From Candidatus Magasanikiibacteriota bacterium (lineage in GTDB: Bacteria; Patescibacteriota; Patescibacteriia; Magasanikbacterales; UBA922), in contig JACQQA010000007.1 in the NCBI GenBank assembly GCA_016207245.1, positions 1-60,936 on the forward strand: 60,936 nt of DNA. The letters run 5' to 3'. Shown here one piece after another: positions 1,584 to 42,801 of this stretch. The stretch's first letter is position 1. Each line of letters begins with the position of its first letter. A model generated the notes under the pieces. That model was not told the origin of the DNA, made no database searches, and was given only the letters and a program-made list of their open reading frames with translations. A program made the position numbers and the translations under genes.

Positions 1584-1587
1584 TATT

Positions 1588-3071: not shown

Positions 3072-3083
3072 AATTAAACAATT

Positions 3084-5139: not shown

Positions 5140-5154
5140 ATAAATTAACATCAT

Positions 5155-10049: not shown

Positions 10050-10231
10050 GTAAGAATTAGTCGCGTTGTTTATACTTTTACGAGCTTTATGTGGCAAATA
10101 AGTCATTGCGAGGAGCTCGCGCGACGAAGCAATCCAGCAATCGCATGGGAACGCGATAACGGTGTGGATTGCTTCGCCTGCGAAGGCTCGCAATGACTTT
10201 AAGAAATATAAACAACGCTACCGATTCTTAC
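10050..10231. repeat. Complete nested palindromic MITE-like element
   Basis: Outer arms are 10050-10075 and 10206-10231 (22/26 complementary). The inner 96-bp palindrome 10102-10197 runs gtcattgcgagg...ctcgcaatgac. Positions 10050-10189 are the reverse complement of 1-140. Confidence 0.85.
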
Positions 10232-11525: not shown

Positions 11526-11564
11526 CTCATAACTCCCAATTCTAAAATCCTAACTTTAAAATCT

Positions 11565-12298: not shown

Positions 12299-12360
12299 AA
12301 GAAGTCGGGATTTATGGTTTCTGAATTCGGAGTTAGGATTTTAGATTTAAGAGTTATGAT

Positions 12361-20211: not shown

Positions 20212-22443
20212 ATGTCATACAAAATGCAAGGCGGCCAATATTTAAACTTGCAAGATTCCAAATTGGAAAATATTCCTGGCATTGATCCGGAAAAATTTAA
20301 CGAAGCCGCGCGGATAATGCGCGGGTTGATGTTTTGCGCGGTTGAAGCGGCTAAGTCCGGGCATCCGGGCGGTTCCAGTTCAAAAACCGAAATGTTTTTA
20401 GCAAAAGTTTTGGGCGGGGCAATGGCGTTTGACGTATTGGATCCAAAAAATCCCGGGCGGGATAGAGTGGTGTGGTCTGCCGGACATTGTTCGCCGGGTT
20501 TGTACGGCGGTCTTTCTTTAATATATGGCGCTCTGCGCAAAGCCGGAAAAAAGTTTGACGCGAAAAAATTAGGCGCGATTTTGCCGGAAGATTTAATTCG
20601 TTTTCGCCGGCCTGATGGTCCGCAAGGCCACATTGAAAATCATTACCCGCTGTCAGATATTTCCACCGGCCCGTCAGGGCACGGTTTATCAGCCGCCGGC
20701 GGAATGGCCATCGCGCATCGTTCCTCCGGATTAGACACGAAAGTTTGGGTGTTTATGGGCGACGCTGAATCAGAGGAAGGCATGAGTTACGAGGCGCGCA
20801 ATATTATAAATACGGTTGGCGCGTCAAACTTAATCGTCAGTTTGGATTACAACCATTTTGGCATTGACGGAAATATTAATGAAGTTATTTTATCTCCATA
20901 TATCAACCACTGGCTGGGACTGGGCTGGAATGTGATTGAGGTTGACGGGCATAATATTTTGGAATTAGTTCACGCTTATCAAAAAGCCGCGCAGGGATTT
21001 AATAATGGAAGCCCGACAGTTGTTTTGGCGCACGCGATTAAGGGTAAATTTTATGGCGCAAAAGAAAATACCGCTGATTCGCACGGGAATCCGGCCAAAA
21101 CTGAAGAATACGTGGATTTGATGAAAAATTTAGGTTTTATCGTTACCGGCGAGGTGAAAAAAGATATTGAAATAGTTTTGCAAGCTTTAACGCCGGAATT
21201 GGCGGGATATATTGTTGAGAGATTGGAGGTAGGAAAGACCCGCCTTCGCCCTGGTGGGGCTTCGGCGAGGCAAGCCGAAGAAAAATTAGTAGAAAAAATG
21301 CATTCCGCTTTGGTTGGTAGGCCATTAGTCAACCCGACGGACATCAGACGGCCGAAAGAATTGCCGAAAGAATTAATTTTTGAAGAAGGGACGAAAGTGG
21401 CGACCAGAAAAGCCACGCAAGCGTTTTTTGAGTGGCTGATGAAACAAACCGCGTTTTTTTGGGCCGGTTGCGGGGATTTAAGCAAATCAATCTTAACGCA
21501 AAAAGCGGAAAACGTTTTTGGCGACATTAATCGCGATAATCCGTTCGGCCGTGGCATCCGTTTCGGCATCGCCGAGCAAAATATGGCGATGATGAGCGTG
21601 GGCATGACGATGGATAGATTGCCCGGCGGGTTCGCGCCGATTTCCGTTTTTTCTTCTTACGCCGTGTTCACCTCAATGATGACCAACTGCGTGCGGTTGG
21701 GTTTAATCGGCAATCATTTGAATCCAAAAACCAAGGGTTTTTTTATTCTGCTCGCCGCGCATGACGGGCCGGAAACCGGCGAGGATGGTCCGACGCATCA
21801 GGGCTTGTATTGGATGAGCATATATAACGCTTACCCGGGAATTAAAGTTTTTAAACCAATGGACGCGAATGAGACGATTGAAATGCTGTTTTACGCGCTG
21901 GAAAAAGGCGAGCCGATCGCGTTGTCAGTTACCCGTCCAGATACGATAGTGTTTGACAGAAGCGTTGGCAAGTCAAAAGCGTCAGACGCAACCAACGGCG
22001 CCTATGTATTTTATGAAACTCATAAATCTAAAATCATTCCGCCAGCTGGCGGACATAAATCTAAAATTGTTCTTGTGGTGTGCGGCAGTCAAATTTTAAT
22101 AAATACTATGGAAGCGGTGCGGGAGTTAGAGGCGAAGGAGTTGGAAGTGAAAGTTGTTGCTGTTACTTCGCCGGAATTGTTTGAAGAATTGAGAAAAAAT
22201 AATCCAGAAAAAGCTAATGAAATTTTCAGCGATGAGGATCGCGAACGGACGATCACGATTCACAATGGCTGGAAAGGATTTTTGTATCCGTTTCTTCTGC
22301 CTAAAGATTATGTGAGCCGAACCATTGCGATTGATACTTATTTAAAGTCGGGGAATCAAGAAGAAGTATACGAACTCGCCAAACTTACGTCCGAAGATAT
22401 TAAGAATAAAATTTATGAGTTTACCAAAATTTCTCACCGATAA
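20212..22443 (+). CDS. tkt: Transketolase (with in-frame repeat insertions)
   Basis: AKSGHPGGSSS, DRVVWSAGHCSPGLY, MGDAESEEG, GIAEQNM and HDGPETGEDGPTHQ. At 743 aa it is longer than typical, owing to inserts such as RLRPGGASARQAEE and KSKIIPPAGGHKSKI. Confidence 0.9.
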   Translation: MSYKMQGGQYLNLQDSKLENIPGIDPEKFNEAARIMRGLMFCAVEAAKSGHPGGSSSKTEMFLAKVLGGAMAFDVLDPKNPGRDRVVWSAGHCSPGLYGGLSLIYGALRKAGKKFDAKKLGAILPEDLIRFRRPDGPQGHIENHYPLSDISTGPSGHGLSAAGGMAIAHRSSGLDTKVWVFMGDAESEEGMSYEARNIINTVGASNLIVSLDYNHFGIDGNINEVILSPYINHWLGLGWNVIEVDGHNILELVHAYQKAAQGFNNGSPTVVLAHAIKGKFYGAKENTADSHGNPAKTEEYVDLMKNLGFIVTGEVKKDIEIVLQALTPELAGYIVERLEVGKTRLRPGGASARQAEEKLVEKMHSALVGRPLVNPTDIRRPKELPKELIFEEGTKVATRKATQAFFEWLMKQTAFFWAGCGDLSKSILTQKAENVFGDINRDNPFGRGIRFGIAEQNMAMMSVGMTMDRLPGGFAPISVFSSYAVFTSMMTNCVRLGLIGNHLNPKTKGFFILLAAHDGPETGEDGPTHQGLYWMSIYNAYPGIKVFKPMDANETIEMLFYALEKGEPIALSVTRPDTIVFDRSVGKSKASDATNGAYVFYETHKSKIIPPAGGHKSKIVLVVCGSQILINTMEAVRELEAKELEVKVVAVTSPELFEELRKNNPEKANEIFSDEDRERTITIHNGWKGFLYPFLLPKDYVSRTIAIDTYLKSGNQEEVYELAKLTSEDIKNKIYEFTKISHR
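22021..22067. repeat. Family-C short element in frame in tkt
   Basis: cataaatctaaaat + cattccgccagctggcgga + cataaatctaaaat. A 44-nt stretch is identical to 45194-45237. Confidence 0.85.
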
Positions 22444-23872
22444 AAATTTAATTCCTAACATCACGATCAATCCCAATCTAAACTATCTCGGGACGGAGAC
22501 GGCTTTTGGTTTTGGGGCCGAAGTGCTTGCGGTTGAGAATTCAAAAAAATTTCCGCAAATTTTTAAATTTCATGTCGGCGATACCGGTCCGACCACGCCG
22601 GAGCCGATTATTGATATCGCGATTCAGGCCCTGAAAAACAAACAGACAAAATACGGCCATTTCGCCGGCTATCCGCAGGTGCGCGAAAATATCGCGAGAT
22701 ATTGGAGCGAAACTAGAGGCGTGGAAATTAAAAAAGAAAATGTTTTGCTTCAGCCCGGCGGCAAGCCGGTGATTGAATTAATGTTTCAAGCTTTGCTCGC
22801 TCCCGGCGATAAAATCATCGTGCAAGATCCAGGGTATCCGGTTTACGAATCTTTGGCCGAGTTTAACAATCACGACGGCGTATTGCGCTGGCAGGCGCAT
22901 AAAAATGAAAGCCCTTCGGCTGGTTCGGCAGGCTCACCACAGGGTGGCGTTCAGGGCAAGACTTTGGAGTTTAGAGTGGAGGATTTGGAAAAATTATTGG
23001 CGGGAAATAATCAAGTTAAAATTCTTTGTCTTAACACGCCGCAAAATCCAACCGGAATGATTATTGGCAAAGAAAAATTGGAAGCTATCGCCGAATTAGT
23101 CAGAAAACATAAGTTTTTTGTGATTTTTGACGATATTTACGATCAGATTGTTTTTGGCGGGAGAAAACAATACAGCTTTCTTTCCATTCCCGGCATGTTG
23201 GACTGGACGATTAATTTGAACGGTTATTCAAAAAATTACGCGATGACCGGCTGGCGTTTGGGATTTATCATCGCGCCGGAATGGGTGATAGAAATCTTCG
23301 GCCGGCTGGCGATAAATAAATGGAGCAACGTCAATCGGATGGAACAGATTGTCGCGGGCGCGATTTATGGCGATGTAACTTTGGATGGTTTTGAATATAA
23401 AAGCGTGAAAGACGAAGTGCAGGCGATTATTAGCAAAGATTTTATTGAATATGAAAAGAAAGGCGGGTTTGTTTCCGAATCTTTGAATTTGTTAAAGCCA
23501 TACATAGTTTGCAACGAAGCTGAAGGCGCGTTTTATTTGTTTCCTAGTTTTCAGAGAGTTTTAGATTTGAAGTATGTTAAAGAAAATTTAGGATTAAAAA
23601 GTGATGTGGATTTGCGCAATTGGTTGTTGTACGAGAGGGGGGTTGCCACGCTTTCCGGATCTGATTTTGGCAAAATGGGCGCGGGCTATATTCGTTTTTC
23701 TTACGCCGAAGACAGAAACCGTCACATCATACCGGGCATGAAATATATTTTGAAAGTGGTGATTGAGTTGATAGAAAAATCAAACGAGATTGCGCCGTTG
23801 AAAGTTGAGGAGGTTGATGAGAAGGTGGGGGAGCTGGAGAAGAAATATTTTGAGGTTGGTAAAGTTTGCTAA
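22415..23872 (+). CDS. Class I/II PLP-dependent aminotransferase
   Basis: NTPQNPTG, and YSKNYAMTGWRLG (the PLP lysine motif). It contains an in-frame low-complexity insert SPSAGSAGSPQGGVQGK. Confidence 0.8.
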   Translation: MSLPKFLTDKNLIPNITINPNLNYLGTETAFGFGAEVLAVENSKKFPQIFKFHVGDTGPTTPEPIIDIAIQALKNKQTKYGHFAGYPQVRENIARYWSETRGVEIKKENVLLQPGGKPVIELMFQALLAPGDKIIVQDPGYPVYESLAEFNNHDGVLRWQAHKNESPSAGSAGSPQGGVQGKTLEFRVEDLEKLLAGNNQVKILCLNTPQNPTGMIIGKEKLEAIAELVRKHKFFVIFDDIYDQIVFGGRKQYSFLSIPGMLDWTINLNGYSKNYAMTGWRLGFIIAPEWVIEIFGRLAINKWSNVNRMEQIVAGAIYGDVTLDGFEYKSVKDEVQAIISKDFIEYEKKGGFVSESLNLLKPYIVCNEAEGAFYLFPSFQRVLDLKYVKENLGLKSDVDLRNWLLYERGVATLSGSDFGKMGAGYIRFSYAEDRNRHIIPGMKYILKVVIELIEKSNEIAPLKVEEVDEKVGELEKKYFEVGKVC

Positions 23873-23898
23873 GTAGCTAAGTTTGCTAAGTTTGATTG

Positions 23899-23928
23899 TT
23901 GACGGAGGTTTTAGTTTGGTAGTATAAT
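23899..23928 (+). promoter_or_regulatory. Sigma70-like promoter
   Basis: TTGACG, 18 nt spacer, TATAAT, 10 nt upstream of the ATG at 23938. Confidence 0.5.
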
Positions 23929-23937
23929 ATAAAAACT

Positions 23938-24300
23938 ATGGAAAATGAAGATGCGCAGAAAATAATTAAGATATTGGAACAACATGGAAAGAGATTTGAT
24001 GAACAAGATGAGCTTTTGCATTTTATTTGTGAAACAGTAGCAACAAAAGATGAACTTGGCGAGTTAAAAAAAAAGATGAATGAAAGATTTGACGTGACTG
24101 ATAGCCAATTATCAGGGATTAAAGTTGAGCTGGTGAGTATCGGGAAGGATTTGGAAGAAATTAAATCAAGTTTGAAAAAATTGGAGGATAAAACACAGGA
24201 AGACGATGACGCGATGATTTCTGAAATTGAGAAATTAAAACAACGGGTCGCGGTTTTGGAGCGAGAGCTGGTGAAAGTAAGGCAAATGCAGCCGGCGTAA
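23938..24300 (+). CDS. Coiled-coil hypothetical protein
   Basis: Heptad-rich and charged. It shares a QL(S/G)GIKxE motif with ORF 42802. Confidence 0.6.
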   Translation: MENEDAQKIIKILEQHGKRFDEQDELLHFICETVATKDELGELKKKMNERFDVTDSQLSGIKVELVSIGKDLEEIKSSLKKLEDKTQEDDDAMISEIEKLKQRVAVLERELVKVRQMQPA

Positions 24301-24411
24301 AATCATAACTCCTAACTCTAAAATCTAAACTCCAAAATCCTAAATTATTAGTCCGTCCTCTTGGCCGTTCGGCAAGCTCACGGCTCGGGGCGGATTTTTT
24401 ATTTTTTGATA

Positions 24412-24440
24412 TTGACATTGTTTTGTTTTTTTGCTTAAAT
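24412..24440 (+). promoter_or_regulatory. Sigma70-like promoter upstream of the GC-rich OPT gene
   Basis: TTGACA (24412-24417), 17 nt spacer, TTAAAT (24435-24440), located in AT-rich host-like DNA. Confidence 0.45.
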
Positions 24441-24578
24441 ACACCCGGTTCATTCAAACTAAAAATAAATTCACGCGTTTGGGGCAAAACGCGTGTTAGT
24501 TTTATATAGTTCTAGTTGGTTCAAAGTTTCTGGCGGTTCTATGTGTCCTCTTGGGTGAGGACGAGGAGGGTTTCAATC

Positions 24579-26228
24579 ATGATAGCAGAAAGACCAAGTA
24601 TCTGGATGGGAGTCACACTGAAGAGTGTGATTTCCGGCTTCATCCTGGCGGTCATCATGTGCGCCGCCAATTCCTACCTGACGCTCAAGGCGGGCGTCAT
24701 CGAGGAAGGGCCAATCATCGCGGCCTTGATCTTCACCGGCATTTTCTTTGCACTGAAGCAGAAGGTGACGACCACCGAGGCTATGATCGCGGCCACCATG
24801 GGATCGGCCGGCGGAAGCTTCGGATTCGTCACCAATATCTTCGCGGCCTTCCAAATGGTGGGTATCACGCTCACCACCGGCCAGATGATGTTGCTCACGC
24901 TTTCCACCGGCGTTTTCAGCGTTCTGATGGCCATCCCGTTCTACTATCTCTTCATCGTGAAGGAAACTTTGCCTTGGGTCGTAGGCGAGGCTTGCGCCAA
25001 TGTCATCCAGAACACAGTGGCCTCAAAAGATACCAAGCAGGGTAAAATCATCCTATGGTTCACCATCCTGTTCTTCGGCGTTCTAATGCTACAAGGCAAG
25101 ATGTGGATGCCGGAGATGAGCGACTTCTACACCTTCGGAATGGTGGGAGTAGGCCTGGCTTGGAGCCCCTTCTTCTTGAGTGCCGGAGGACTGTTGGGTC
25201 TGCGCACAGGTTGGGGATTCGTGGTTGGAGCGCTACTGCTTGTGATTGTATCACCGTACACAAACAAGCCGGCCGCTCCCCACAAATTCTTCTATCCGGG
25301 CGTGGCCTTTCTCATCACCTCCGGCCTGACTACACTCGTGCTTAAGTGGCAAACCATGGTGTCTGCGTTGGGCGCCCTGAAGAACATCGGTAGTGATGAT
25401 GGTGGAATTCTCCCACTCAAATGGCTGGCCGGACTTAGCCTAGTCGTAGCTATGATCATTGTTGTGATCCTGAAATACTGGTTCGGGGTGCCTATCTATC
25501 TCGGTATCATCTATATCGTGGTGGGAGGAGTATTCCTGAATCTGGTCGCCATTCGAGCGGCAGGAGAAACAACTTTCAATCCGGTGCGCGCTATGGGTAT
25601 AGTAACCCAGGGCATCGGCGCTCTGACCGGCGCCGTGGACAAGCTGGTCAATCTGACTGGCGCGGGCGTGATGGCTGGCAGCAACAACCAAACCAGCATC
25701 CTGTGCCAGGATCTCTACTCCGGTTGGCGGCTCAAAATTAACCCGAAACTGCAGGTGGCCTTGCAGGCGATGGTACTGCCAGTCATTGCCGTCGTTAGCG
25801 TCGGCATCTTCTACTTCTTGTCATCCACCACTGAGATCTCGTTGGAAAACGACAAGCTGTCGGCGCCGGTAGCTAAGGCCTGGGCCGGATTCTCCCTGAT
25901 TCTTAATGGCGACAAACTGCCCGACAACGCTCTCAATCTGATGTACATATTCGGAATCGGTGGCGTGGTTCTGGCGTTGCTGGAAGGAAATGCCGCTATC
26001 AAGCGCTTCCTGCCTTCCACTACCGGCATCGGCATCGGGCTCATCCTGCCAATCGCTTACTCATTGGATTTCTTCGTGGGCGCAGTGATATTCCTCATCC
26101 TCGCCAAGAAATTCAAAATGGGCGAAGAGACAATAAGTAGCATAGCGGCCGCCGGCATTCTCGGCGAAGCGGCTGGCGGGCTACTGAACGGCGCCCTGAA
26201 AGTCGCAGGCATCTTCCCGTTAGAATGA
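24579..26228 (+). CDS. OPT-family oligopeptide transporter
   Basis: Polytopic, with an N-terminal ANSYLTLKAGVIEEGPIIAA signature resembling the OPT motif aNaYlgLKvG. The ATG at 24579 is preceded by GAGGAGGG. Confidence 0.65.
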   Translation: MIAERPSIWMGVTLKSVISGFILAVIMCAANSYLTLKAGVIEEGPIIAALIFTGIFFALKQKVTTTEAMIAATMGSAGGSFGFVTNIFAAFQMVGITLTTGQMMLLTLSTGVFSVLMAIPFYYLFIVKETLPWVVGEACANVIQNTVASKDTKQGKIILWFTILFFGVLMLQGKMWMPEMSDFYTFGMVGVGLAWSPFFLSAGGLLGLRTGWGFVVGALLLVIVSPYTNKPAAPHKFFYPGVAFLITSGLTTLVLKWQTMVSALGALKNIGSDDGGILPLKWLAGLSLVVAMIIVVILKYWFGVPIYLGIIYIVVGGVFLNLVAIRAAGETTFNPVRAMGIVTQGIGALTGAVDKLVNLTGAGVMAGSNNQTSILCQDLYSGWRLKINPKLQVALQAMVLPVIAVVSVGIFYFLSSTTEISLENDKLSAPVAKAWAGFSLILNGDKLPDNALNLMYIFGIGGVVLALLEGNAAIKRFLPSTTGIGIGLILPIAYSLDFFVGAVIFLILAKKFKMGEETISSIAAAGILGEAAGGLLNGALKVAGIFPLE

Positions 26229-26374
26229 ATATCTTATCACGACGGACAGCACACGCGCGCGTATTGCCCCACGCGCGCACTGCCTTGAATTGACTTCGCA
26301 GTCATTCAAGGTCCTACCGCGCTGTTCCGTCCTTCCCCATTTTTAGCATTAAAAATGTGAAAAGCGGGGAGGAG

Positions 26375-26428
26375 AAAATTTATATTAAAAAATCATTCAA
26401 TAAAGAATGATTTTTTAATATAAATTTT
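26375..26428. terminator. Perfect 24-bp-stem AT-rich palindrome between convergent GC-rich genes
   Basis: aaaatttatattaaaaaatcattc / aataaa / gaatgattttttaatataaatttt. Confidence 0.6.
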
Positions 26429-26538
26429 TTAACTTTCTTCAATCTCCGAAATCATTCAGAAATTTAAGGGAGTGGTGGAGGCGCGGGCGTTGTGATAAAC
26501 GTCGGCGTCTCCACGGGAGGGAAAGAGCGGTGTGCGCG

Positions 26539-27816
26539 CTACGCGGCAAGAGGATTCTCAATGATCAGAGAGATTCCCTGGCCGCCGCCGATGCACATGG
26601 TTATGAGCGCGTATCGCTTGCCAGTGCGGCGGAGGCCGTAGGCTGCGGTGAGAGTGAGGATTGCGCCGGTGGCGCCGAGCGGGTGGCCCAGAGCGATTGC
26701 TCCGCCGTATGGGTTGACTTTTTCAGGGTCAATACCCATTTCGGTGAAGCCTTTGATGCAGGCCAGAGCCTGCGGAGCAAAGGCCTCGTTGAGCTCCACC
26801 CAGTCAATCTGGTCGCCGGTCAGGCCGGCGCGTCCCAGCGCTTGCTTGGTGGCCGGCACCGGCCCCCAGCCCATGATCTTGGGGTCGCAGGCGCCGTAGC
26901 CCCAGGCCACGATGCGCGCCAGCGGTTGAAGGTTATGTTCTGTAGCGGTGAACTGCTGGCAGAGTACCATGGCCGCCGCGCCATCCACCACGCCGGAAGC
27001 ATTGCCGGCAGTGATCATTCCGCCGGGTTCGAATGTTGGTCGGAGACCGGCCAGCCCGTCATACGAGGCATCGTCCCGGATGTGGGTGTCGCGGCAGACG
27101 TCCATTGGGCTCACTCCGCCGTTCACCGGCACCGACACCGGTACGGTTTCCTCGTCGAAGTAGCCGGTGTCGCGCGCCGCCTTGGCCCGTTCGTTGGACT
27201 GCAAGGCGAAGCGATCACACTCTTCGCGCGTGATGCCGTTCTGCCGACCTAAGAGTTCGGCCGTATTCGCCATGGCCATGCCAGCCACGGGATCAAAGAG
27301 CGAGAGCAGCATCATGTCCTGCAGGGCAGCGCCAGGCGGGAGACTGGTCAGCGGCCCGTACTTGACGTGTCGTCCGCGCAGACCGTGCGCGACGTGCGGG
27401 TATTGCATTGACTGCATTCCCACGACAGCTACGAACGGCCCGTTGAGATCTCCTAGCAGGAGTTTCATGGTACCTTGAACGATCGCTTCAGCGCCAGACC
27501 CGCACAGCCGTTGAACCGTGAGCGCGGGGACGTCTTCGGGCAGACCGGCAAGGAGTCCGACATGGCGAGCGCCATACCACGATTCCCGATGCGAGTCGCC
27601 GACAGTGCCGGCAATCACGTGGCCGAACTTGTCAAGCAGGTTGGCCAGAGGCGTGATGACGGCTTTGAGAGCCATTGCTCCCAACTGGTTGGTTGTGAAG
27701 CCCGAGAACAGACCGGGCGAACGGTTCTCGTGCAGAATGTCAGCCCGTGGCGTTCGTTTGCCACCGTCAATGATGACCACAGGATCTTCGGCAAGAATCC
27801 TTTCGAAGTGTTTCAT
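26539..27816 (-). CDS. Acetyl-CoA acetyltransferase (thiolase)
   Basis: Active-site VQRLCGSGAEAI and the C-terminal NPYGGAIALGHPLGATGA...MCIGGGQGISLIIE. SD TAGGAGGA lies 7 nt upstream. Confidence 0.9.
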   Translation of the reverse strand: MKHFERILAEDPVVIIDGGKRTPRADILHENRSPGLFSGFTTNQLGAMALKAVITPLANLLDKFGHVIAGTVGDSHRESWYGARHVGLLAGLPEDVPALTVQRLCGSGAEAIVQGTMKLLLGDLNGPFVAVVGMQSMQYPHVAHGLRGRHVKYGPLTSLPPGAALQDMMLLSLFDPVAGMAMANTAELLGRQNGITREECDRFALQSNERAKAARDTGYFDEETVPVSVPVNGGVSPMDVCRDTHIRDDASYDGLAGLRPTFEPGGMITAGNASGVVDGAAAMVLCQQFTATEHNLQPLARIVAWGYGACDPKIMGWGPVPATKQALGRAGLTGDQIDWVELNEAFAPQALACIKGFTEMGIDPEKVNPYGGAIALGHPLGATGAILTLTAAYGLRRTGKRYALITMCIGGGQGISLIIENPLAA

Positions 27817-27828
27817 GTTGTCATCCTC

Positions 27829-29775
27829 CTACGAGTTCATGAACACGGCCGGAACCTTGGGGCCGTTGGCCATGAAGTTTGTGAGTCCGATTCGCATGTC
27901 CTGTGTCCCGAAGCAGTGGCCGAAGCCGTCCGCTTCCAGTTTGAGTCCTTCCGCGAGTGGCAGAGCGAGCCCTCTGCGGACCACGTCCACCAGGATGGCG
28001 TCGATCGCCTGCGAATGATGGCCGATGTCAACGATGGGCGTGCCGTCCGACACCCCCATCGGGTTGGGGTTGGTAGCGTGGATTTCCGGATCGGGGTCCT
28101 TCAGATGCGCCGCGATGAATCGCTTGGCGCTATCCATAGGGTCGCCCGAACCGAGGTCCCTCGCCCAGCCGATTTCTTTTGCCACGCCGGCATTGATTGT
28201 CTTGCCGGTGCGGAGGAGCTCCAGCGCTTTCGCGAATCCGACGAGGCGCGGGAGCCGTTGCGTGCCGCCGTAGCCAGGGATGATACCGAGATTGACCTCG
28301 GGTTGGCCGATGATGGCGTTCTTGCCGACCACGCGGTCGTGGCAAGCCATCACGAGTTCGCATCCGCCGCCGAGGCAGGGACCGTTCACCACTGCGATGA
28401 CCGGCTTGCCGAGGCTTTCGATGTAGTTGAATATGCCCTGTCCGCTGATCGCCATGACCGTGCCCTGTTTCGGGTCTGTCAGCGCGGCTAGTTCGTTGAT
28501 ATCTGCGCCGGCGATGGCGCCGTTGTAGCCGGTCAGGATGATGCCTCTGACCTTCTCGTCCGTCTCGAGTCCGCGGAATGCGTAGTCAAGCTCCACCATG
28601 GTCAGGCGGTTGAGCGCGTTCATAGCTTCGGGACGAAAAATTGTGACAACCACGATGCCATCATCGTTGATCTCCACCTTGACGTTGGAGAAGAAGTCTA
28701 TCGACATGGCCTCCACGATGCTTTCCGGCACAGTGAAGCCCGGGTTCTCCTGCGCGTAGATTGCGCAGATTGTTCTGATCTCGTTCGGGTCCTGGTTGAA
28801 CTGCGCCACGAGTCCGAACTTGAACCCGAGCGCGTTCTTGCAGAGCCAGTCCAAATCAGTCGCCGAGATCACGTTGTTATCCACGAGCCAGACTGCCCGT
28901 CCGATGATTGCGGCCATGAGTTGATCGTGGATTGTTCGTTCGGTTTCTTCATTGCAGGACTTGTCACCCGACAAATCCCACGGTTGCGAGCCCTGTTGGA
29001 GAAGAACCGGCGGTGCTGTCCAGTAGTCGCCGTATTTCTCCCGCATCATGTCGGCGCAGAATCTGATGATCTTGTTGCCGGCAGTGATGTTGAGCACGTT
29101 GAAAGCGCCACTGCCGCCGATGTACTTGTCGGCGATAGCGTTCACTTGGGCCACAGTCGCGACCCCGCGCTCAACCAGCCACGCGCAGGCCAGACAATAG
29201 ATCGTGAAGATCTGGTCTGCCGCGAAGCAGGGAACATCGGCCGTTGCGATCGGCACCTTGCCGAGCGCCACAGTCAGATCGTACGCCCTTTGCCAGTTCA
29301 CATGGTGGCCGACGAGCTCTACCGGCAGAGAGCGCCAGGCCGGAGTGAAGGGATGCCAGACGAAGAATCGTTGATGGCGCAGTACTTTCTTCGTAAGCAC
29401 AGCCCACGGAATGCTGGACGTGGTCGTGAGGATCAGGCAGTCATCCCGCACTATCTTTTCAAGTTGCGCGTAGATGCTCTGCTTGACTTCCACGTTCTCG
29501 CTTGCGGCCTCAAAGACCGCGTCGCATTGGGACAGGTCGGACAGGTTGAGGGTTGTTGTGATGGCCGCGAGCGCCTTGGCGGCGGCTCCTTCCGAAAGCT
29601 TGCCTTTCTTCACGGCTTTCGTGACATAGCCGCGGATACGGCCCATTGCCGCACCCAGTTGCTCTTGGCCGACATCGACCAGCAGCACTTTCCCGCCTGT
29701 TTTCGCGGCTAATCCAGTCGCGACATAGGCGATGTCAGCGCCGATGACTCCGGCGCCGACAATTCCGATATTCAA
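27829..29775 (-). CDS. Bifunctional 3-hydroxyacyl-CoA dehydrogenase (N-terminal) / enoyl-CoA hydratase (C-terminal)
   Basis: N-terminal Rossmann IGIVGAGVIGADIA. The C-terminal crotonase fold reads VVTIFRPEAMNALN...GADINE...VNGPCLGGGCEL. Apparent TTG start with AAGGAAGGTG upstream. Confidence 0.85.
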   Translation of the reverse strand: MNIGIVGAGVIGADIAYVATGLAAKTGGKVLLVDVGQEQLGAAMGRIRGYVTKAVKKGKLSEGAAAKALAAITTTLNLSDLSQCDAVFEAASENVEVKQSIYAQLEKIVRDDCLILTTTSSIPWAVLTKKVLRHQRFFVWHPFTPAWRSLPVELVGHHVNWQRAYDLTVALGKVPIATADVPCFAADQIFTIYCLACAWLVERGVATVAQVNAIADKYIGGSGAFNVLNITAGNKIIRFCADMMREKYGDYWTAPPVLLQQGSQPWDLSGDKSCNEETERTIHDQLMAAIIGRAVWLVDNNVISATDLDWLCKNALGFKFGLVAQFNQDPNEIRTICAIYAQENPGFTVPESIVEAMSIDFFSNVKVEINDDGIVVVTIFRPEAMNALNRLTMVELDYAFRGLETDEKVRGIILTGYNGAIAGADINELAALTDPKQGTVMAISGQGIFNYIESLGKPVIAVVNGPCLGGGCELVMACHDRVVGKNAIIGQPEVNLGIIPGYGGTQRLPRLVGFAKALELLRTGKTINAGVAKEIGWARDLGSGDPMDSAKRFIAAHLKDPDPEIHATNPNPMGVSDGTPIVDIGHHSQAIDAILVDVVRRGLALPLAEGLKLEADGFGHCFGTQDMRIGLTNFMANGPKVPAVFMNS

Positions 29776-29937
29776 TTGTCACCTTCCTTTTCTGTTGCTG
29801 TTTAGTAACCTCTTTGCCCTTTTTACTCCTTTCTGTTATTGGGCAAAATTAGGTTAACAAAAAAATCGTTTCGCGTCAAGATGAATACATTGACTTTTTT
29901 TTTCTTTTCAATTATACTTTAATCACTTTTCGCAATT

Positions 29938-30085
29938 GTCATCCCGAGCGACCCCGCCATAGCGGGGGAGCCGAGGGATCCCTTTCCAACGCACAGAAAG
30001 ACGCATCAGAATAGATTTTATTTAAAATGGATTAGCAGGCAAAGAAAAGGGATTCCTCACCGCCTCATCGGCGGTTCGGAATGAC
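29938..30085. repeat. Family-B palindromic element just upstream of infB
   Basis: gtcatcccgagcgaccccgccatagcgggggagccgagggatccc ... gggattcctcaccgcctcatcggcggttcggaatgac with an AT-rich interior. Confidence 0.75.
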
Positions 30086-30099
30086 AGACGACCCAACCT

Positions 30100-32133
30100 A
30101 TGAACGTCTCTGAACTCGCTCGCCAATTAAGAACCAACACCAAAGAACTGCTGGAAATTCTCCCGCAGTATGGTTTTGATATTGGCCAACGGGCGATTAA
30201 GATTGATAACAAAGTCGCGGATCAAATTTCTCGGCGCTGGCGGTTTATTAAAAAAGATTTGGAAGAAAAAAAACGGAAAGCTGAAGAAGAAAAAAAGCAG
30301 AAAGAAAAAGAATTACGCAAAGAAAGCGGACACAGCGTGGTTTTACCGCAACTCATAACTGTGCGGAATTTTGCCGAGCGCTTGAATCTTCCGATTACGC
30401 AAGTGATTACCGAGCTGATGAAAAACGGCATTCTTGCCAACCAAAATCAAAACATTGATTATGATACCGCCTCAATTATTGCCGGAGAGCTCGGTTTTAC
30501 CGTGCTAAAAGAAGAAGGCGGAGTCAAAGTTGATATTCAAAAAGAAGAACAACGCGGTCAGGTTTTGGAGCAAGCGCTAGCCAAAGCGGAACATTCTTTG
30601 CCCCGCGCGCCGGTGATTGTGGTGATGGGACACGTTGACCACGGCAAAACCAGATTGTTAGATACTATCAGAAAAACGAATATTTTAGATACTGAATCCG
30701 GCGGCATCACCCAGCACATCGGCGCTTATCAGACAATTTGGAAAGATCCGAAAAGCGGTGAGGAGCGCAAACTGACTTTTATTGATACTCCGGGTCACGA
30801 AGCGTTCACTGTTATGCGTAGCCGCGGCGCGAAAGTCGCTGACATCGCGATTTTAATTGTGGCGGCGGATGATGGCGTCAAACCTCAGACCGAGGAAGTT
30901 ATTAATATTATAAAAGCCGCGAAGTTGCCGATAGTAGTTGCCATCAACAAGATTGATAAGGATGGCGCTGATCCGCAGAGAGTGCGCGCGGAATTATCAC
31001 AGAGGGGCATTCAAAGCGATGAGTGGGGAGGCAGTGTGCCAATGGTGGAAATTTCCGCGAAACAAAATTTAAATATTGATAAGCTGTTGGATATTTTATT
31101 GTTGGTGGCTGATATGGAGCAGGAAAAAATTAAAGCTGACGCGAGTTTGCCTGCCGCGGGAACGATTATTGAATCCCATGTTGATAAGGGTATGGGGCCT
31201 GTGGCCACGGTATTGGTGCAGTCCGGCACTTTGAAATTAAATGATCCGTTGGTGGTTAATGGTGAGATTTACGGCAAGGTGCGGGCGATGAAAGACTATT
31301 TGGCTCGTACTTTGGAAGACGCTCCGCCATCAACGCCGGTGCAAATTGTCGGTTTTAAAGTCGCGCCGGAAGTCGGTGATATTTTAGATGTCAGCCAAGC
31401 CGGCCAAGCGGAAAAAATTAATGTCAAAGAGAAAAAATTGCGCCAAACCGGAGCCGAGCGTCAGATAGTTGTCGCTGGTAATGAAGATATTGAAGAAGAT
31501 AAAAAGAAAAAGATTTTGAATTTAGTTATTAAGGCTGATGTGTTGGGTTCATTGGAAGCGATTATCGGCACTTTGGAAAAATTTAAACACGAAGAAGTCG
31601 GCGTGGCGGTTGTTGGCAAGGGTTTAGGTTTTGTTACCGAGGATGACGTGAATAAAGCGGAAGCCGCCAAAGCCGTGGTGGTTGGGTTTCATGTTAATCC
31701 GACCTCCAGCGCGGAAAATTTGATGATGGAAAAAGAAGTTACTTTTACTCGTTATGATGTGATCTATGATTTGTTTAATTGGGTTAAGGCTGAATTGGAG
31801 AAAATGCTATCATCGGAAAAAATCGCAACCGAGATTGGCAAAGTTAAAGTTTTGGCGATATTCCGCACTGACCGTGGCATGATGACTGTCGGCGGCCGGG
31901 TAATGGATGGAAAAGTTAAATTAAATACTTTAGCCCGCGTTATTCGCGAAGGCGTGAATATGGGCAATGGCAAAATTGTCCAGTGCAAAGTCGGCCCGCA
32001 GGATGTGAAAGAGGCGTCCGAAGGCACTGAATGCGGCATGCGGTTTGAAGGCAAAGTTAAAATTGAAATTGGCGATAGTTTGGAAATTTATACAGAAGAA
32101 ACAAAAGCAAGAAAAATAGTTTTTGAAAAATAA
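30100..32133 (+). CDS. infB: Translation initiation factor IF-2
   Basis: GHVDHGKTRLLD, DTPGHEAF and NKIDK GTPase motifs, with a lysine-rich N-terminal region. Confidence 0.95.
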   Translation: MNVSELARQLRTNTKELLEILPQYGFDIGQRAIKIDNKVADQISRRWRFIKKDLEEKKRKAEEEKKQKEKELRKESGHSVVLPQLITVRNFAERLNLPITQVITELMKNGILANQNQNIDYDTASIIAGELGFTVLKEEGGVKVDIQKEEQRGQVLEQALAKAEHSLPRAPVIVVMGHVDHGKTRLLDTIRKTNILDTESGGITQHIGAYQTIWKDPKSGEERKLTFIDTPGHEAFTVMRSRGAKVADIAILIVAADDGVKPQTEEVINIIKAAKLPIVVAINKIDKDGADPQRVRAELSQRGIQSDEWGGSVPMVEISAKQNLNIDKLLDILLLVADMEQEKIKADASLPAAGTIIESHVDKGMGPVATVLVQSGTLKLNDPLVVNGEIYGKVRAMKDYLARTLEDAPPSTPVQIVGFKVAPEVGDILDVSQAGQAEKINVKEKKLRQTGAERQIVVAGNEDIEEDKKKKILNLVIKADVLGSLEAIIGTLEKFKHEEVGVAVVGKGLGFVTEDDVNKAEAAKAVVVGFHVNPTSSAENLMMEKEVTFTRYDVIYDLFNWVKAELEKMLSSEKIATEIGKVKVLAIFRTDRGMMTVGGRVMDGKVKLNTLARVIREGVNMGNGKIVQCKVGPQDVKEASEGTECGMRFEGKVKIEIGDSLEIYTEETKARKIVFEK

Positions 32134-35656: not shown

Positions 35657-38600
35657 ATGCAAAAAAAATACAACCATAAACAAGTAGAAGCGAAGTGGAA
35701 AAAATATTGGGAAGTAAAAAAATTATACAAAACAAAAGATCCTTCGACTTCGCTCCGCTCCGCTCAGGATAAACCCAAACAATATATCTTGGACATGTTC
35801 CCGTATCCTTCCGGCGCAGGTCTTCATGTCGGCCATCCGAAAGGATATATCGCGACTGATGTGGTTTCCAGAATGAAAATGATGCAGGGCTACAATGTTT
35901 TGCACCCTATGGGTTGGGACGCGTTCGGTTTGCCGGCGGAAAACTACGCGTTGAAAAATAAAGTCCATCCGGCGGTCGCGACCAAAAAAAATATTCAGGT
36001 TTTCAAAAAACAACTTGGCCTTTTGGGTTTCACTTACGATTGGGACCGCGAAATCAACACTACTGATCCCAACTATTACAAATGGACGCAGTGGATATTT
36101 TTGCAGATGTTTAAACGCGGGCTGGCTTATGAATCTAACGAACCGATAAACTGGTGCCCATCATGCAAAACCGGTTTAGCTAACGAGGATTTGGAAGACG
36201 GCAAATGTGAGCGTTGCGGATCAGCCATAGAACAAAAGCCAATGCGGCAGTGGGTTTTGAAAATTACCGATTACGCGGAGAGGTTGTTGAAAGATTTGGA
36301 CACAAAGATTGAAGTACTAATTCCACATGTTATTGATAAAAAGAATCCACCAAAGCCCGGCAAGAAAACGGTTGAAAGAAAAACTATTCATGCGATTGTT
36401 CGTGACCCCAAAACTGGAAAGTTTTTGTGTTTGCATTGGAAAAATCATCCTTGGACAACTTTTATCGTGGGTGGGATTGAAGATAATGAAGAAGTTGTGT
36501 CTGCCGCCAAACGCGAGGTGTTGGAGGAAACAGGTTATGACGATTTGCGATTCGTCAAGATACTGGGTGGACAGATTAAGGCCGAGTATTACGCCGCCCA
36601 TAAAGACGAAAATAGAATTGCGAACGTCACTGGCATACTTTTTGAATTAAATAGTCATAGGCATGTGCCGGTTGCTGCTGAAGAAGCCGACAAACACGAA
36701 GCGATTTGGCTGGATAAGGCCGAGATAACAGAAGAGAGAATGACTTGCGCGGAATTATCATTTTGGCTAGAACAGCTTGATTCGGCCTCTAATAGTTGTC
36801 AATCAAGGCCATTGCTTGACTGGCCGGAATCAATTAAAGAAATGCAGAGAAATTGGATTGGACGTTCCGAAGGCATAAATTTTAAGCATAAAGTCAAAGA
36901 TTTGGGAATTGAATTTGAGGCTTACGACTCAATTCCGCAAACATTTTTAGCGCAGACATTTGTTATTATTGCTCCAGAACATCCATTGGTGAAGAAATTA
37001 GTTGAAGGCACGGATAAAGAAAAATCAGTGATGGCGTTTGCGGAAGAAATTAAGAAAAAAAAACTTAACAAAAAATTTGATATTGAAACCGACATGGAAG
37101 GTATTTTTACAGGTCGGTATTCTGAAAATTATATGGGGACTGGCAAAGATTTACCGATTTGGGTAGCGAGTTTTGCTTTGATGGATTATGGCACTGGTAT
37201 TGTGGGTTGTTCGGCGCATGATGAGAGAGATTTTAAGTTTGCTAAAAAGTACAATTTACCTCTACTTTCGGTTTTGTTTCCTGTGGATAAAGAGCTGGCA
37301 GAAAAAGTCAGAAAGCAAGAAATATTTTATCGCGAGTCAGGTGGAATTTTAGAAGAGCCAAAAAAGTTTGCTGGTATGCGTTGGGATAAAGCGCGCGAGC
37401 CAATTATAGATTATATTGTGGAAAATGGTTGGGGCAGAAAAACTGTCAATTATAAACTCCGCGATTGGGTGTTTTCCCGCCAGCGCTACTGGGGCGAACC
37501 GATTCCGTTGGTGCATTGTGAGAAGTGCGCCCGTCTGCCCGGCGGGCAGGGTTGGGTGGCCGTTTCAGAAAAAGACCTGCCCTTAGAACTTCCCAAAGTA
37601 AAGCATTATGAACCATCAGGCACTGGCGAGTCGCCGTTGGCGAATATCAAAAACTGGGTGAACACAAAATGTCCTCAATGCGGCAGACCGGCAAAACGGG
37701 AGACAAACACAATGCCGCAATGGGCGGGAAGCTGTTGGTACTACCTTGCTTATTGCATGAAACACAAAAATAAGTATGAGTGGGATAAAGAAAAAATTGA
37801 TTATTGGAATCCAGTAGACCTGTATGTCGGCGGGGCGGAGCACGCGACGAGGCATTTGATTTACGCGCGGTTTTGGCACAAGTTTTTGTATGATATCGGC
37901 GCGGTGAGCGCAGTCGAACCATTTACCAAATTGCAGAACGTCGGTTTGATTTTAGCCGAGGACGGACGCAAGATGAGCAAGCGTTGGAATAATGTTATCA
38001 ATCCCGATGATGTCGTTAAACAATACGGCGCGGACGCGATGCGGTTGTATGAAATGTTTATGGGACCGTTTGATCAACCTTGTGCGTGGAGCACACAGGG
38101 AGTGGTGGGGATGTGTCGTTTTCTTGATAAAGTATGGAATTTGAAAGCAAGAATTACAAGTTACAAGAAACCCGCCTATCGGCGAGGCAGGCAAGATACA
38201 AACAATATCCAATATACAATATCCAATATACAAGTGATATTGCATCAAACCATCAAAAAAGTCACCGAAGATATTGAAAATTTAAGATTCAACACCGCGA
38301 TTTCGCAGTTGATGATACTTACCAATGAAATGTCTCGGTCGGAAGTCATAAGTCCTACGTCATACGCCACACTACTTCAACTCCTCGCCCCCTTCGCTCC
38401 CCACATTTGCGAAGAACTCTGGAGCCAGCTCGGCAATAAGAAATCAATCTTCTCGTCCGACTGGCCAAAATATGACGCGGATAAATTGGCCTTTGACACC
38501 ATGAAACTCGCGGTGCAGGTGAATGGACGGGTGCGCGCGACGATTGAAGTGGCGACTGATGCCAGCGAGGAGGAAATAAAATCTTCTGCTTTAGCGGATG

Positions 38601-38683
38601 AAAATGTAAAGAAGTGGTTGGAGGGCAAAGAGCCGAAGAAAATTTTTTATGTGAGAGGGAGGTTGGTGTCGGTTGTTGTTTAA
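35657..38683 (+). CDS. leuS: Leucine--tRNA ligase with an inserted NUDIX domain
   Basis: HIGH (HVGHPKG), the Zn module CPSCKTGL...CERCG, [18 protein letters not shown], CP1 ([14 protein letters not shown]) and KMSKRWNN. At 1008 aa it is longer than the roughly 800-860 aa typical of bacteria. Confidence 0.95.
   Translation: [1008 protein letters not shown]
36302..36820 (+). other. 173-aa NUDIX hydrolase domain inserted in LeuRS (aa 216-388)
   Basis: Nudix box G272-Y294, [23 protein letters not shown] (nt 36470-36538), fits GX5EX7REUXEEXGU exactly. Confidence 0.85.
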
Positions 38684-38686: not shown

Positions 38687-40201
38687 GTGTTTTATTTGTT
38701 TATGTGGGAGGGGATTATTAATTCAAAAAGCAAGACGTTTTTAACGTTTTGTTTTTGTTTTATCATCGGGGTGGCGGCAGCGTCTCTCTTAGAATTAAAA
38801 ATTGGATTTCTTTATCTCTATCTATCTTTATTTATAATCGTCACTCTTTTAATCATTTTTTGGCAAAACAAAATAACGCGGTTTTTCGTTATTTGTATTC
38901 TGTTTTTTGTTATCGGCGTTATCCGTTATCTCCTCGCTTTCCCATTATCTTCAAACCACATCGCTAATTATGTTGGCAAAAAAGCGGAGTTGACCGGTTT
39001 TGTATCCAGAGAGCCGGACGTGAGAGAAGATGGTGTTAGATATGTTTTGAAAATCAAAAATCCTAAATCAAAAATCCTAAATCACGAAATTGATGGCCGG
39101 GTTTATTTTAAATCAAATCTCTATCCTCGTTTTCAATACGGGGATGTATTGAAATTAAATTGTGAGCTGGAAAAACCGGAAGCGAGCGATGACTTTCGTT
39201 ATGATATGTATATGGCGAAAGAGGGGATATTCGCGCTCTGTCAATCGCCGTGGGCGGAAAAGGTTGGAGAGGGTGAAGGATTTTTCGCGTATAGCGCGAT
39301 TTTGTGGTTGAAAAATAAAGCGGCGGACAAAATTAATTTGCTTTGGCATGAGCCGATGGCGAGTTTTATGGCCGGTTTGCTTTACGGCTATCGCGGCGGG
39401 TTGGGGGAGTTGAATCAGGCATTCAATCGCACCGGCATTACGCACATTGTCGCGATTTCCGGTTATAATATCAGCATTATTGCGACAATTTTAATTGCCT
39501 TTTTTACTTTTTTATATATTCCGCGCAAAAAAGCGTTTTGGCTGGTCTGCGGAGGAATTTTATTATTCGTAATTTTTGCCGGCGCCAGCGCTTCGGTCGT
39601 GCGGGCCGGCATTATGGGCGCGTTAGTTTTGCTGGCAAAACAACTTGGTCGGTTGTCTCGCGTTGGCAATGTGCTGGCTCTGTCAGCGGTATTAATGTTG
39701 CTCCAGAATCCGTTGGTTCTCCGTTGGGATGCCGGTTTTCAACTTTCTTTCGCCGCGACATTGGGTTTAGTTTATTTGTCGCCAAGAATTCAACGCTGGT
39801 TTGTCAGATTACCGGAATTTTATGGTCTGCGTGAGACTTTTGTTTCAACTATTGCCGCGATTATCGCGACTCTGCCGTTGATTTTATTTAATTTCGGCCG
39901 CTTGTCAATCGTCGCGCCAATCGTGAATGTGTTAGTTTTGTGGTTGATTCCGTTCCTGATGCTGTTTGGATTTCTTGCTGTAGTGTTAAGTCTTATTTTT
40001 CTCCCGGCCGGGCAAGTCGTCGCGTGGATCGCTTGGGTTGGATTAAAATATATCGTACTCGTCGTAACTTGGTTTAGCAATCTCAAATGGGCGGCGATTG
40101 AATTTAGGATTAATTGGGTTATAATGGTATTATTGTACTTATTGATAATCTCTATTTTTTATGCCAAAAGTAAAAATTTTAGATTCCAAAGTCGGTTATA
40201 A
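38687..40201 (+). CDS. comEC: ComEC/Rec2 competence channel protein (DUF4131 plus Competence domains, no MBL domain)
   Basis: Polytopic, with an OB-like N-terminal region and FNRTGITHIVAISGYNISI, typical of the Competence domain. Confidence 0.8.
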   Translation: MFYLFMWEGIINSKSKTFLTFCFCFIIGVAAASLLELKIGFLYLYLSLFIIVTLLIIFWQNKITRFFVICILFFVIGVIRYLLAFPLSSNHIANYVGKKAELTGFVSREPDVREDGVRYVLKIKNPKSKILNHEIDGRVYFKSNLYPRFQYGDVLKLNCELEKPEASDDFRYDMYMAKEGIFALCQSPWAEKVGEGEGFFAYSAILWLKNKAADKINLLWHEPMASFMAGLLYGYRGGLGELNQAFNRTGITHIVAISGYNISIIATILIAFFTFLYIPRKKAFWLVCGGILLFVIFAGASASVVRAGIMGALVLLAKQLGRLSRVGNVLALSAVLMLLQNPLVLRWDAGFQLSFAATLGLVYLSPRIQRWFVRLPEFYGLRETFVSTIAAIIATLPLILFNFGRLSIVAPIVNVLVLWLIPFLMLFGFLAVVLSLIFLPAGQVVAWIAWVGLKYIVLVVTWFSNLKWAAIEFRINWVIMVLLYLLIISIFYAKSKNFRFQSRL

Positions 40202-42770: not shown

Positions 42771-42801
42771 ATGTATAATATATTGGCTTAATTTTTTAAT
42801 T

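Follow-up and report, generated by a model that had tools for sequence, protein, structure and literature searches.

The locus considered here lies on a contig of a groundwater Candidatus Magasanikbacteria (candidate phyla radiation (CPR)/Patescibacteria), which was studied in its entirety (60,936 bp) and is referred to below as the window. Next to infB, the gene of translation initiation factor IF-2, it carries a GC-rich block with three genes: an OPT-family transporter gene, a thiolase gene and a gene for a fusion of 3-hydroxyacyl-coenzyme A (CoA) dehydrogenase and enoyl-CoA hydratase (HADH/ECH). Beta-oxidation genes are reported to be all but missing in CPR (PMC9166423, PMC10811913). The locus raises the question of how such genes came to stand at this position, and whether the three arrived together.

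It is concluded that the block very probably consists of two foreign modules, which arrived at different times between a small host open reading frame (ORF) and infB: an older enzyme pair (module B) and a later OPT transporter (module A). Module B would have entered as a block from a GC-rich bacterium into an ancestor of several Magasanikbacteria lineages and would have passed down vertically beside infB ever since. Most of the GC-rich composition would persist in its coding sequence and 3' tail; its 5' region is AT-rich and host-like. Transcription would run leftward, from a promoter region that also serves infB in the other direction. Module A would be a later addition downstream of the thiolase terminator, from a different, moderately GC-rich (~53%) lineage. 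The slot that it occupies would tolerate or attract foreign cargo, as it is empty or holds a different OPT gene and a peptidase-like gene in relatives.

A GC-rich block beside infB

The window has a GC content of 43.8% overall. A preliminary description of this DNA had spoken of an AT-rich genome; it is AT-rich only moderately, and at 44% GC not extreme. In 1-kb sliding averages the GC content is 0.38-0.39 at 23-24.5 kb, 0.53-0.64 at about 24.5-29.8 kb and 0.46-0.47 beyond 30 kb, and it stays at or below 0.49 everywhere except in this block of ~5.2 kb adjoining infB. The jump coincides with the coding borders, near 24560-24600 (left) and at 29775 (right). GC and GC at third codon positions (GC3) are 0.546 and 0.696 for the OPT gene, 0.624 and 0.718 for the thiolase gene and 0.595 and 0.758 for the HADH/ECH gene. 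The 43 other ORFs form a host background of 0.424 +/- 0.034 (GC) and 0.447 +/- 0.056 (GC3, range 0.25-0.535), from which the three genes deviate with z = 3.6-5.9 for GC and 4.4-5.5 for GC3. The tetranucleotide correlation with the host background drops from 0.92 +/- 0.02 in 2-kb host stretches to between -0.07 and 0.26 inside the island.

Sliding GC, GC3 and tetranucleotides thus agree on the abrupt switches near 24.5 and 29.8 kb that had been judged by eye, and the GC3-rich codons were also borne out (0.696-0.758 against a maximum of 0.535). A composition similar to that of the flanks, named beforehand as an outcome that would speak against acquisition, did not emerge: the difference is significant, and GC3 z-scores and tetranucleotide correlation are those of horizontally acquired DNA. 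Long spurious ORFs in alternative frames are present as described, at 26530-27252, 27475-28491 and 28921-29712. Further copies within the window were found for both repeat families reported at the edges of the block, the motif at 24300 and the palindrome at 29938-30085. The spacers are indeed AT-rich (24-39% GC), though GC-rich 3' tails flank the genes: both gene blocks keep such a tail, and their 5' sides are AT-rich. The block and its surroundings comprise the following features.

23938 to 24300, plus strand: host-side left anchor, a coiled-coil ORF of 120 amino acids (aa), GC 0.37 and of host composition, on the same Logan contigs as the OPT gene in two other runs (L003, L004)
24301 to 24578, plus strand: left spacer, 39% GC, with repeat motif, T-run, promoter-like site, hairpin and ribosome-binding site
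24579 to 26228, plus strand: module A, OPT-family transporter (PF03169), 549 aa, also called with 549 aa in independent assemblies
26229 to 26335, plus strand: non-coding 3' tail of the OPT gene, 57% GC, with short GC hairpins
26336 to 26460, no strand: spacer between the convergent OPT and thiolase genes, 24% GC, with a perfect inverted repeat of 24-nt arms
26461 to 26538, minus strand: 3' untranslated tail of the thiolase gene, 62% GC, with a GTGGAG...CTCCAC hairpin, conserved in related island copies
26539 to 27816, minus strand: second gene of module B, thiolase, 425 aa (Pfam Thiolase_N and Thiolase_C; TIGR01930)
27829 to 29775, minus strand: HADH/ECH fusion of module B, 648 aa (3HCDH_N and ECH_1)
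29776 to 29937, no strand: divergent control region, 32% GC, with predicted promoters on both strands
29938 to 30085, no strand: palindromic repeat of about 150 nt in the infB leader, of the GTCAT(T/C)(G/C)CGAG host family
30100 to 32133, plus strand: host-side right anchor, infB (IF-2), 86% identical to infB of the relative L006 and in a cluster at 90% identity or more with Magasanikbacteria IF-2

Two modules, probably of different age

Clusters of at least 90% identity join the window's IF-2, CTP synthase and thioredoxin to proteins of Candidatus Magasanikbacteria metagenome-assembled genomes (MAGs). The best matches of HADH/ECH (67% identity) and thiolase (75%) are found in another such MAG (GCA_016212615.1, contig JACRFT010000130.1; L006). 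Its gene order is that of the window, ComEC-LeuRS-GDH-DUF4349-thioredoxin-infB followed by the divergent HADH/ECH-thiolase pair, and the pair is equally anomalous there (GC3 0.785 versus 0.38-0.61 in host genes). At fourfold-degenerate sites the island genes of the two genomes have diverged by 0.52-0.54 and six host genes by 0.49-0.80. Because gene order is shared and synonymous sites have diverged as much as in host genes, module B appears to have been acquired before the two lineages split and to have descended vertically at the infB locus since. Vertically inherited homologs in the same lineage had been named beforehand as evidence against acquisition. The nearest homologs are indeed of this kind; however, they are equally GC-anomalous, so that the transfer only moves to an earlier date.

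The transporter has a different history. Asked whether relatives carry the island at the same locus, L006 gives a divided answer: the enzyme pair stands beside infB, but the thiolase gene is followed by AT-rich DNA in which an AT-rich ORF begins, with no OPT gene at that position. Homologs of the OPT protein are 86, 73, 68, 68, 65, 63, 58, 55 and 51% identical, followed by about 40% in Myxococcota. The nearest (86-87%) belongs to another Magasanikbacterium (L018, assigned by its GreA cluster), where it stands in the order PBP-GreA-OPT and is again GC3-rich (0.70 versus 0.50-0.54). No homology was found between the flanks of the two OPT genes, hence they occupy different loci. The relatives at 67-69% identity (L010, L013) lie on contigs of ~53% GC, in which GC3 is similar across every gene, and their neighbours are not CPR-like: GH2, a DUF1080-type hydrolase, radical-SAM/SPASM, an M42 peptidase and a response regulator. 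The tree places the Magasanikbacteria OPTs inside this small group of 67-69% relatives. These comparisons suggest that the OPT gene was acquired separately from the enzyme pair, and its GC-rich 3' tail (26229-26335) was probably transferred together with it.

One recent transfer of all three genes from a single GC-rich donor is therefore very unlikely, since the OPT gene differs in phylogenetic neighbourhood, GC and distribution. Such an event would account for three contiguous genes with GC3 of 0.70-0.76 amid AT-rich host spacers, and a further copy of the pair (L017) also has an OPT-family gene adjoining the thiolase gene. However, the 691-aa protein of L017 is an unrelated, distant member of the family, encoded in the opposite relative orientation. 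The OPT gene of the window is lower in GC (0.546 versus 0.60-0.62) and has other nearest relatives, and L006 holds the pair without it at the same locus, diverged at synonymous sites to the same extent as host genes. Moreover, an OPT gene is near the pair in none (0/80) of the metagenome loci with 44-50% identical HADH/ECH homologs that served as donor-type controls. The earlier proposal of horizontal acquisition from a GC-rich donor thus holds in that the genes are foreign and point to GC-rich bacteria, but not as one three-gene island from one donor.

Next to its OPT gene, L017 carries a GC-rich peptidase-like ORF that resembles M20/M42 peptidases by eye only. The slot behind the thiolase gene is variable and OPT genes arrived there twice, which may reflect a functional link or merely a permissive site. 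A 91-nt hairpin element (CCATCCTCTCAATAA...TTATTGAGAGGGGGATGG) is shared by L017 (5321-5410) and L006 (13447-13537) at 96.7% identity, with neighbouring genes at 72-77%. It is a mobile repeat or a strongly constrained terminator and was not found in the window. As proof of an empty versus a filled site for the L017 OPT gene, this match was set aside as tentative: the hairpin is far better conserved than the neighbouring genes and may be a mobile repeat.

Descent of the enzyme pair within Magasanikbacteria

Four copies of the pair are known: those of the window, L017, L006 (P0002) and L008 (P0003). Two are from established Magasanikbacteria, and the membership of the other two is suggested by their CPR-type flanks. 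The L017 copy (HADH/ECH 82%, thiolase 71% identical to the window) has AT-rich, CPR-style spacers. The L008 copy (57% and 66%) has a GC3 of 0.87-0.89 and is preceded by a host-type promoter and the host's GCTCCTCGCAATGAC repeat. All four form one clade in 50/50 bootstraps on a stem of 0.35. The 3' tail of the thiolase gene is 92.6% identical to that of L017 over 108 nt and can be aligned with that of L006. The region upstream of the fusion gene is likewise conserved among the copies and in L101 (GCA_016214105.1, JACRPD010000027.1).

Such relations also bear on whether related cassettes were acquired in parallel by each Magasanikbacteria lineage at an infB-proximal hotspot, which is very unlikely. 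Between the window and L006 the island proteins are indeed less conserved (68-76% identity) than most host proteins (68-94%, most of them 86-94%). GC3 is high in every copy (0.70-0.89), and the slot downstream of the thiolase gene differs among genomes. However, the four copies are monophyletic and far from outside sequences, with tree distances of 0.21-0.64 inside the clade and at least 0.84 to everything else. The synonymous divergence equals that of the host, and even the non-coding 3' tail and the promoter region are homologous between copies.

Changes at fourfold-degenerate sites could be polarised. GC>AT exceeds AT>GC by 16:1 on the L006 branch (p = 0.0003) and by 22:8 on the L017 branch (p = 0.016). 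This points to an amelioration that is ongoing and incomplete, which fits a modest synonymous distance, estimated at ~0.27 per lineage since the split.

No more than these four copies were seen in very large databases (5.8 billion clustered proteins and metagenome contigs), in which short GC-rich contigs are likely mis-binned. A metagenome search with the four-copy alignment returned no further CPR-type copies (maximum 50% identity); the 80 donor-type loci came from this search. In the closest relative, L101, the contig stops right at the divergent promoter, 136 nt before infB, which suggests breakage of assemblies at the island border and a possible loss of island-bearing fragments from bins.

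Origin of the enzyme pair

Outside the four copies, identities fall to 44-50% for HADH/ECH and 46-61% for thiolase, with a plateau at about 60%. The named homologs belong to Myxococcota, Planctomycetota, Acidobacteria and 'Deltaproteobacteria'. The 80 donor-type loci have a GC content of 0.54-0.75 (median 0.67), the genes match their loci in GC, and gene GC3 has a median of 0.89 (range 0.60-0.99). The thiolase gene follows directly, with a gap of 0-99 nt, in 70 of them; the other ten are mostly truncated at or within the thiolase gene or lack a long thiolase match. The same pair is present in Haliangium sp. (L019), with GC3 of 0.95-0.97. Relatives outside the host lineage thus belong to unrelated phyla in which the gene is compositionally native, as seen in the 80 loci and, for OPT, in the relatives of ~53% GC. 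Apparently a lineage of 44% GC took up an operon of two genes that was already complete in, and native to, GC-rich bacteria. Given the donor GC3 of 0.60-0.99, the donor may have been little GC-richer than the present copy. A search of genome contigs with HADH/ECH returned only an unrelated Bacteroidota crotonase (37% identity).

It is highly improbable that the genes are ancestral to CPR, kept in few lineages and with their GC-rich codons held by selection. The nearest homologs all stand in CPR-type contexts, the stem is long with no close donor, and the window branch is without net GC decay. There is also a precedent in Ca. Parcunitrobacter, whose beta-oxidation genes are divergent and for that reason were not regarded as a recent acquisition (PMC5220378). 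Against this, only four copies face thousands of outside homologs, and GC-rich bacteria have the very same operon structure. In addition, GC-rich 3' tails oppose AT-rich 5' regions, and two branches show a strong GC>AT excess.

Contiguity of the contig

The contig is not chimeric, because contigs of several runs cross both borders at 100% identity. Logan contigs of SRR12113383, SRR12113384 and SRR12113385, which come from one groundwater study (runs are labelled X1-X4), are 100% identical to the window. The left border is crossed by contigs covering 22691-25338 (X2; L003) and 23927-26332 (X3; L004), at 100% identity. The right border is crossed, also at 100%, by 26492-30380 (X2; L002), 27373-30725 (X3) and 27543-30090 (X4), found in searches over wider stretches; a search confined to this border did not list them. 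A separate 2017 study contains low-coverage, 100%-identical fragments of island and flank. The earlier view that this is not a simple chimeric join is thus upheld by independent runs. The X1 unitigs break at 24438 and 29392; the loose ends are Nextera adapter sequence, and alternative joins at these breaks were ruled out, the adapter k-mers being artefacts.

A chimera of assembly or binning, in which a GC-rich fragment of another organism was fused into a CPR contig, would suit the abrupt compositional switch and the raised island depth but can practically be dismissed, as single contigs from three or four independent runs span both borders, the breaks are adapter artefacts, the infB-HADH/ECH junction recurs in an independently assembled MAG from another sample, and L017 and L008, from other projects, also pair GC-rich genes with CPR-type AT-rich spacers and repeats.

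Several observations weigh against two foreign modules with a vertically inherited enzyme pair. In three runs the island has 1.5-2.5x the k-mer depth of the left flank. Island depth follows GC, and the excess probably reflects GC-dependent coverage bias; a second carrier strain may also be its source. A second genomic context was considered as well and rejected, as no alternative junction contigs were found at 90% likeness or more and the loose ends are only adapter. No donor nearer than 50% (HADH/ECH) or 61% (thiolase) identity was found, and the long stem may mean a long residence. On the terminal branch of the window there is no net GC loss (9 GC>AT versus 12 AT>GC, small numbers), and its composition may be near local equilibrium or maintained. 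The direction of the OPT transfer rests on the composition and gene content of L010 and L013. No integrase or transposase domain was detected in the scanned ORFs of the window, nor a tRNA gene or bracketing direct repeats. Finally, the window holds no acyl-CoA dehydrogenase, electron-transfer flavoprotein (ETF) or acyl-CoA synthetase/ligase among its ORFs of at least 150 aa and three shorter ones that were scanned.

Layout and predicted expression signals

Some points of the layout have to be set right. Thiolase and HADH/ECH are encoded on the minus strand, and the OPT gene starts not at the TTG at 24516 but at the ATG at 24579, which yields 549 aa and is preceded by the Shine-Dalgarno/ribosome-binding site GAGGAGGG. 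Its spacer contains the host repeat motif (24300-24354) and a 9-bp hairpin (24472-24495). A candidate promoter, TTGACA (24413-24418)-17-TGnTTAAAT (to 24441) with an extended -10 TG, lies upstream of the OPT gene. A promoter scan rejected this site, as the second hexamer fails its rule. The TTGACA-17-TTAAAT sequence pointed out before is thus present, at 24413-24441, but it could serve the OPT gene only, because the enzyme pair is read from the opposite end, off the region shared with infB.

In that region, a minus-strand promoter was read from the sequence ahead of HADH/ECH: TTGACG (29879-29874)-17-TGnTAACCT (to 29851), with an AGGAAGG ribosome-binding site. It is kept as TTGACT-17-TGnTAATCT in L006, L007 and L101. 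A plus-strand promoter, TTGACT (29890)-17-TATACT (to 29918), was predicted by the promoter scan ahead of infB. The island genes do stand behind AT-rich, host-style promoter regions, as had been proposed, while promoter function throughout the locus is deduced from sequence. HADH/ECH and thiolase are separated by only 12 nt. Between the convergent thiolase and OPT genes, the perfect inverted repeat with 24-nt arms (26375-26398 and 26405-26428) is terminator-like in both directions. Rfam models over 23800-30200 gave only a sub-threshold chance miRNA match, in the 26336-26460 spacer, and no riboswitch or leader family.

L006 and L101 do not have the palindromic element of 29938-30085 at the corresponding position, and an arm of it is multi-copy in metagenomes (depth about 74 versus 38). 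Because of this absence it is taken as a lineage-specific insertion outside the island, and it looks like a mobile repeat of the miniature inverted-repeat transposable element (MITE) kind. Its GTCAT(T/C)(G/C)CGAGG family also occurs at 816, 3023, 32511, 53378 and 57648, and upstream of the L008 island.

Enzymes and transporter

In the HADH/ECH protein, Pfam places 3HCDH_N at residues 2-180 and ECH_1 at residues 372-560. This domain order is the reverse of every solved FadB, FadJ and MFE1 chain matched. The motifs are intact: GAGVIG (GxGxxG), His141 in HPFTP, the VELV glutamate, GGGCE and PEVNLG. The protein thus has the features of an inverted-order bifunctional HADH/ECH (FadB'-type), namely an N-terminal 3HCDH, the catalytic His/Glu and a C-terminal crotonase with two Glu. 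It scores below the NCBIfam equivalog cut-offs for FadB (246 versus 870 bits) and FadJ (233 versus 869). The asparagine of GF(V)NR is an aspartate in the entire subfamily, outside homologs included. A loss of the catalytic Asn in the dehydrogenase domain was therefore rejected, since in an alignment to solved HBDs the whole subfamily has Asp there. Of the two halves, the dehydrogenase is the more diverged, with 39 of the 44 substitutions at columns that do not vary among outside homologs.

The thiolase scores 349 bits with TIGR01930 (cut-off 240.55) and matches both Pfam domains. The motifs LCGSG, NEAFA, GHPLGATG and CIGGG are present, and 126 of the 136 columns invariant in outside homologs are kept. 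None of the thiolase equivalog models (BktB, FadA, PhaA, PcaF) reaches its cut-off. The OPT protein reaches 139.6 bits with PF03169 (cut-off 25.8). It appears to be a divergent member of the OPT family, because its score with the NCBIfam OPT superfamily model is below the cut-off (104 versus 128).

Since their catalytic motifs are intact, the enzymes of module B look active. Such enzymes catalyze three reversible steps: enoyl-CoA is converted to (S)-3-hydroxyacyl-CoA, this to 3-ketoacyl-CoA and this to acetyl-CoA and a shortened acyl-CoA. The pair would accordingly perform the hydration, NAD-linked oxidation and thiolysis of enoyl-CoA, and the segment from crotonyl- or 3-hydroxyacyl-CoA to acetyl-CoA is the most defensible assignment. 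A complete beta-oxidation pathway was not found among the scanned ORFs of the 61-kb window, the rest of which holds CPR-like housekeeping genes without other acyl-CoA enzymes. In the cell, the pair might convert scavenged short-chain or hydroxy-acyl-CoA to acetyl-CoA, and the OPT protein might import peptides or a related substrate.

A wider proposal is conceivable, if rather doubtful: a Magasanikbacteria subclade would have domesticated a foreign module from crotonyl- or 3-hydroxyacyl-CoA to acetyl-CoA, and the site behind its terminator would be a recurrent capture site for nutrient-uptake cargo. If so, this cargo would comprise, in different lineages, a peptidase and two OPT transporters unrelated to each other. 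An evolving scavenging island would then add to the energy metabolism of a CPR cell that otherwise ferments and depends on a host, with a GC-rich coding composition that is held, at least in the lineage of the window, and not decaying.

Other features of the window

Copies of an AT-rich motif family (AAATCATAACTCCTAACTC...) are located at 11503-11562, 12307-12363, 24300-24354 and 39044-39089. The motif starts at or just before a stop codon at 24300 and 11503-11562 and, inverted, just past one at 12307-12363, and the copy at 39044-39089 lies inside a ComEC-like ORF. An exact 44-nt duplicate (AAATCTAAAATCATTCCGCCAGCTGGCGGACATAAATCTAAAAT) is found in unrelated ORFs, at 22024-22067 in a transketolase-like gene and at 45193-45236 in an MgsA-like ATPase gene; X1 contigs break within it at 22038-22053.

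Four tandem paralogs of 477-513 aa (150-6696 and 8916-9947) each end in a PEP-utilizers mobile domain and have no other recognised domain. A stand-alone PPDK_N (ATP-binding) protein is encoded near them, and together they look like a split, multiplied system of the pyruvate-phosphate-dikinase type. A 148-nt inverted repeat of 97% complementarity (1-148 and 10042-10189) brackets the array, one arm being at the contig start. In the leucyl-tRNA synthetase (35657-38683, 1008 aa), a NUDIX hydrolase domain is inserted at residues 241-357; the L006 ortholog has 870 aa and no NUDIX match. Ten 21-nt tandem units at 42836-43140, inside ORF 42751-43338 (no Pfam match), predict a 7-residue repeat protein.

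Comparison with known systems

A literature search found no paper that ties Magasanikbacteria to these enzymes. Among characterised enzymes, the inverted-order FadB' of R. eutropha (PMC4230905) is comparable: it shares the N-terminal NAD-binding 3HCDH, the C-terminal crotonase and the adjoining thiolase gene. The window protein, which has the catalytic His/Glu in its dehydrogenase domain and the two glutamates of the crotonase, is likened to FadB' by domain order, catalytic residues and gene neighbourhood. The sizes are 648 aa for the window protein and 86 kDa for FadB'. In E. coli FadB and FadJ the domain order is opposite.

The HADH/ECH-thiolase operon of Myxococcota, Planctomycetota and other GC-rich bacteria (e.g. 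Haliangium) has the same domain architecture, gene order, orientation and short gap. The window copy differs from it in sequence (44-50% and 46-61% identity) and belongs to a genome of 44% GC, where an AT-rich promoter region precedes it, whereas the outside copies match their own genomes in GC.

With classical genomic islands the block shares the deviant composition, the accessory metabolic and transport cargo and a content that is variable among relatives. It is unlike them in being without a tRNA gene, an integrase or transposase and bracketing direct repeats.

CPR are thought to be almost entirely without fatty-acid synthesis and beta-oxidation (PMC9166423). The one exception described is 'Candidatus Parcunitrobacter nitroensis', in which fatty-acid oxidation genes were first reported for a CPR genome (PMC5220378). 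As in the window, hydratase, dehydrogenase and thiolase functions that are normally missing in CPR occur there in a CPR bacterium (PMC5220378, PMC9166423). However, the genes of Ca. Parcunitrobacter form a complete set at one location, with acyl-CoA dehydrogenases, ETF and acyl-CoA synthetase among them, and a recent acquisition was argued against (PMC5220378). The window has two enzyme genes only, no acyl-CoA dehydrogenase or ligase within 61 kb, and a composition that marks a foreign origin.

The block is most suitably classed as a further case of ordinary horizontal gene transfer, here into a CPR genome. Because an apparently intact cassette is maintained vertically in several Magasanikbacteria, lateral transfer from large-genome, GC-rich bacteria can evidently add acyl-CoA metabolism to reduced CPR genomes, and such genes can be kept. 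It also holds a warning: as composition and depth of the island are unlike those of the host, short island contigs are likely broken or mis-binned, and acyl-CoA capacities would then be under-reported in CPR MAGs.

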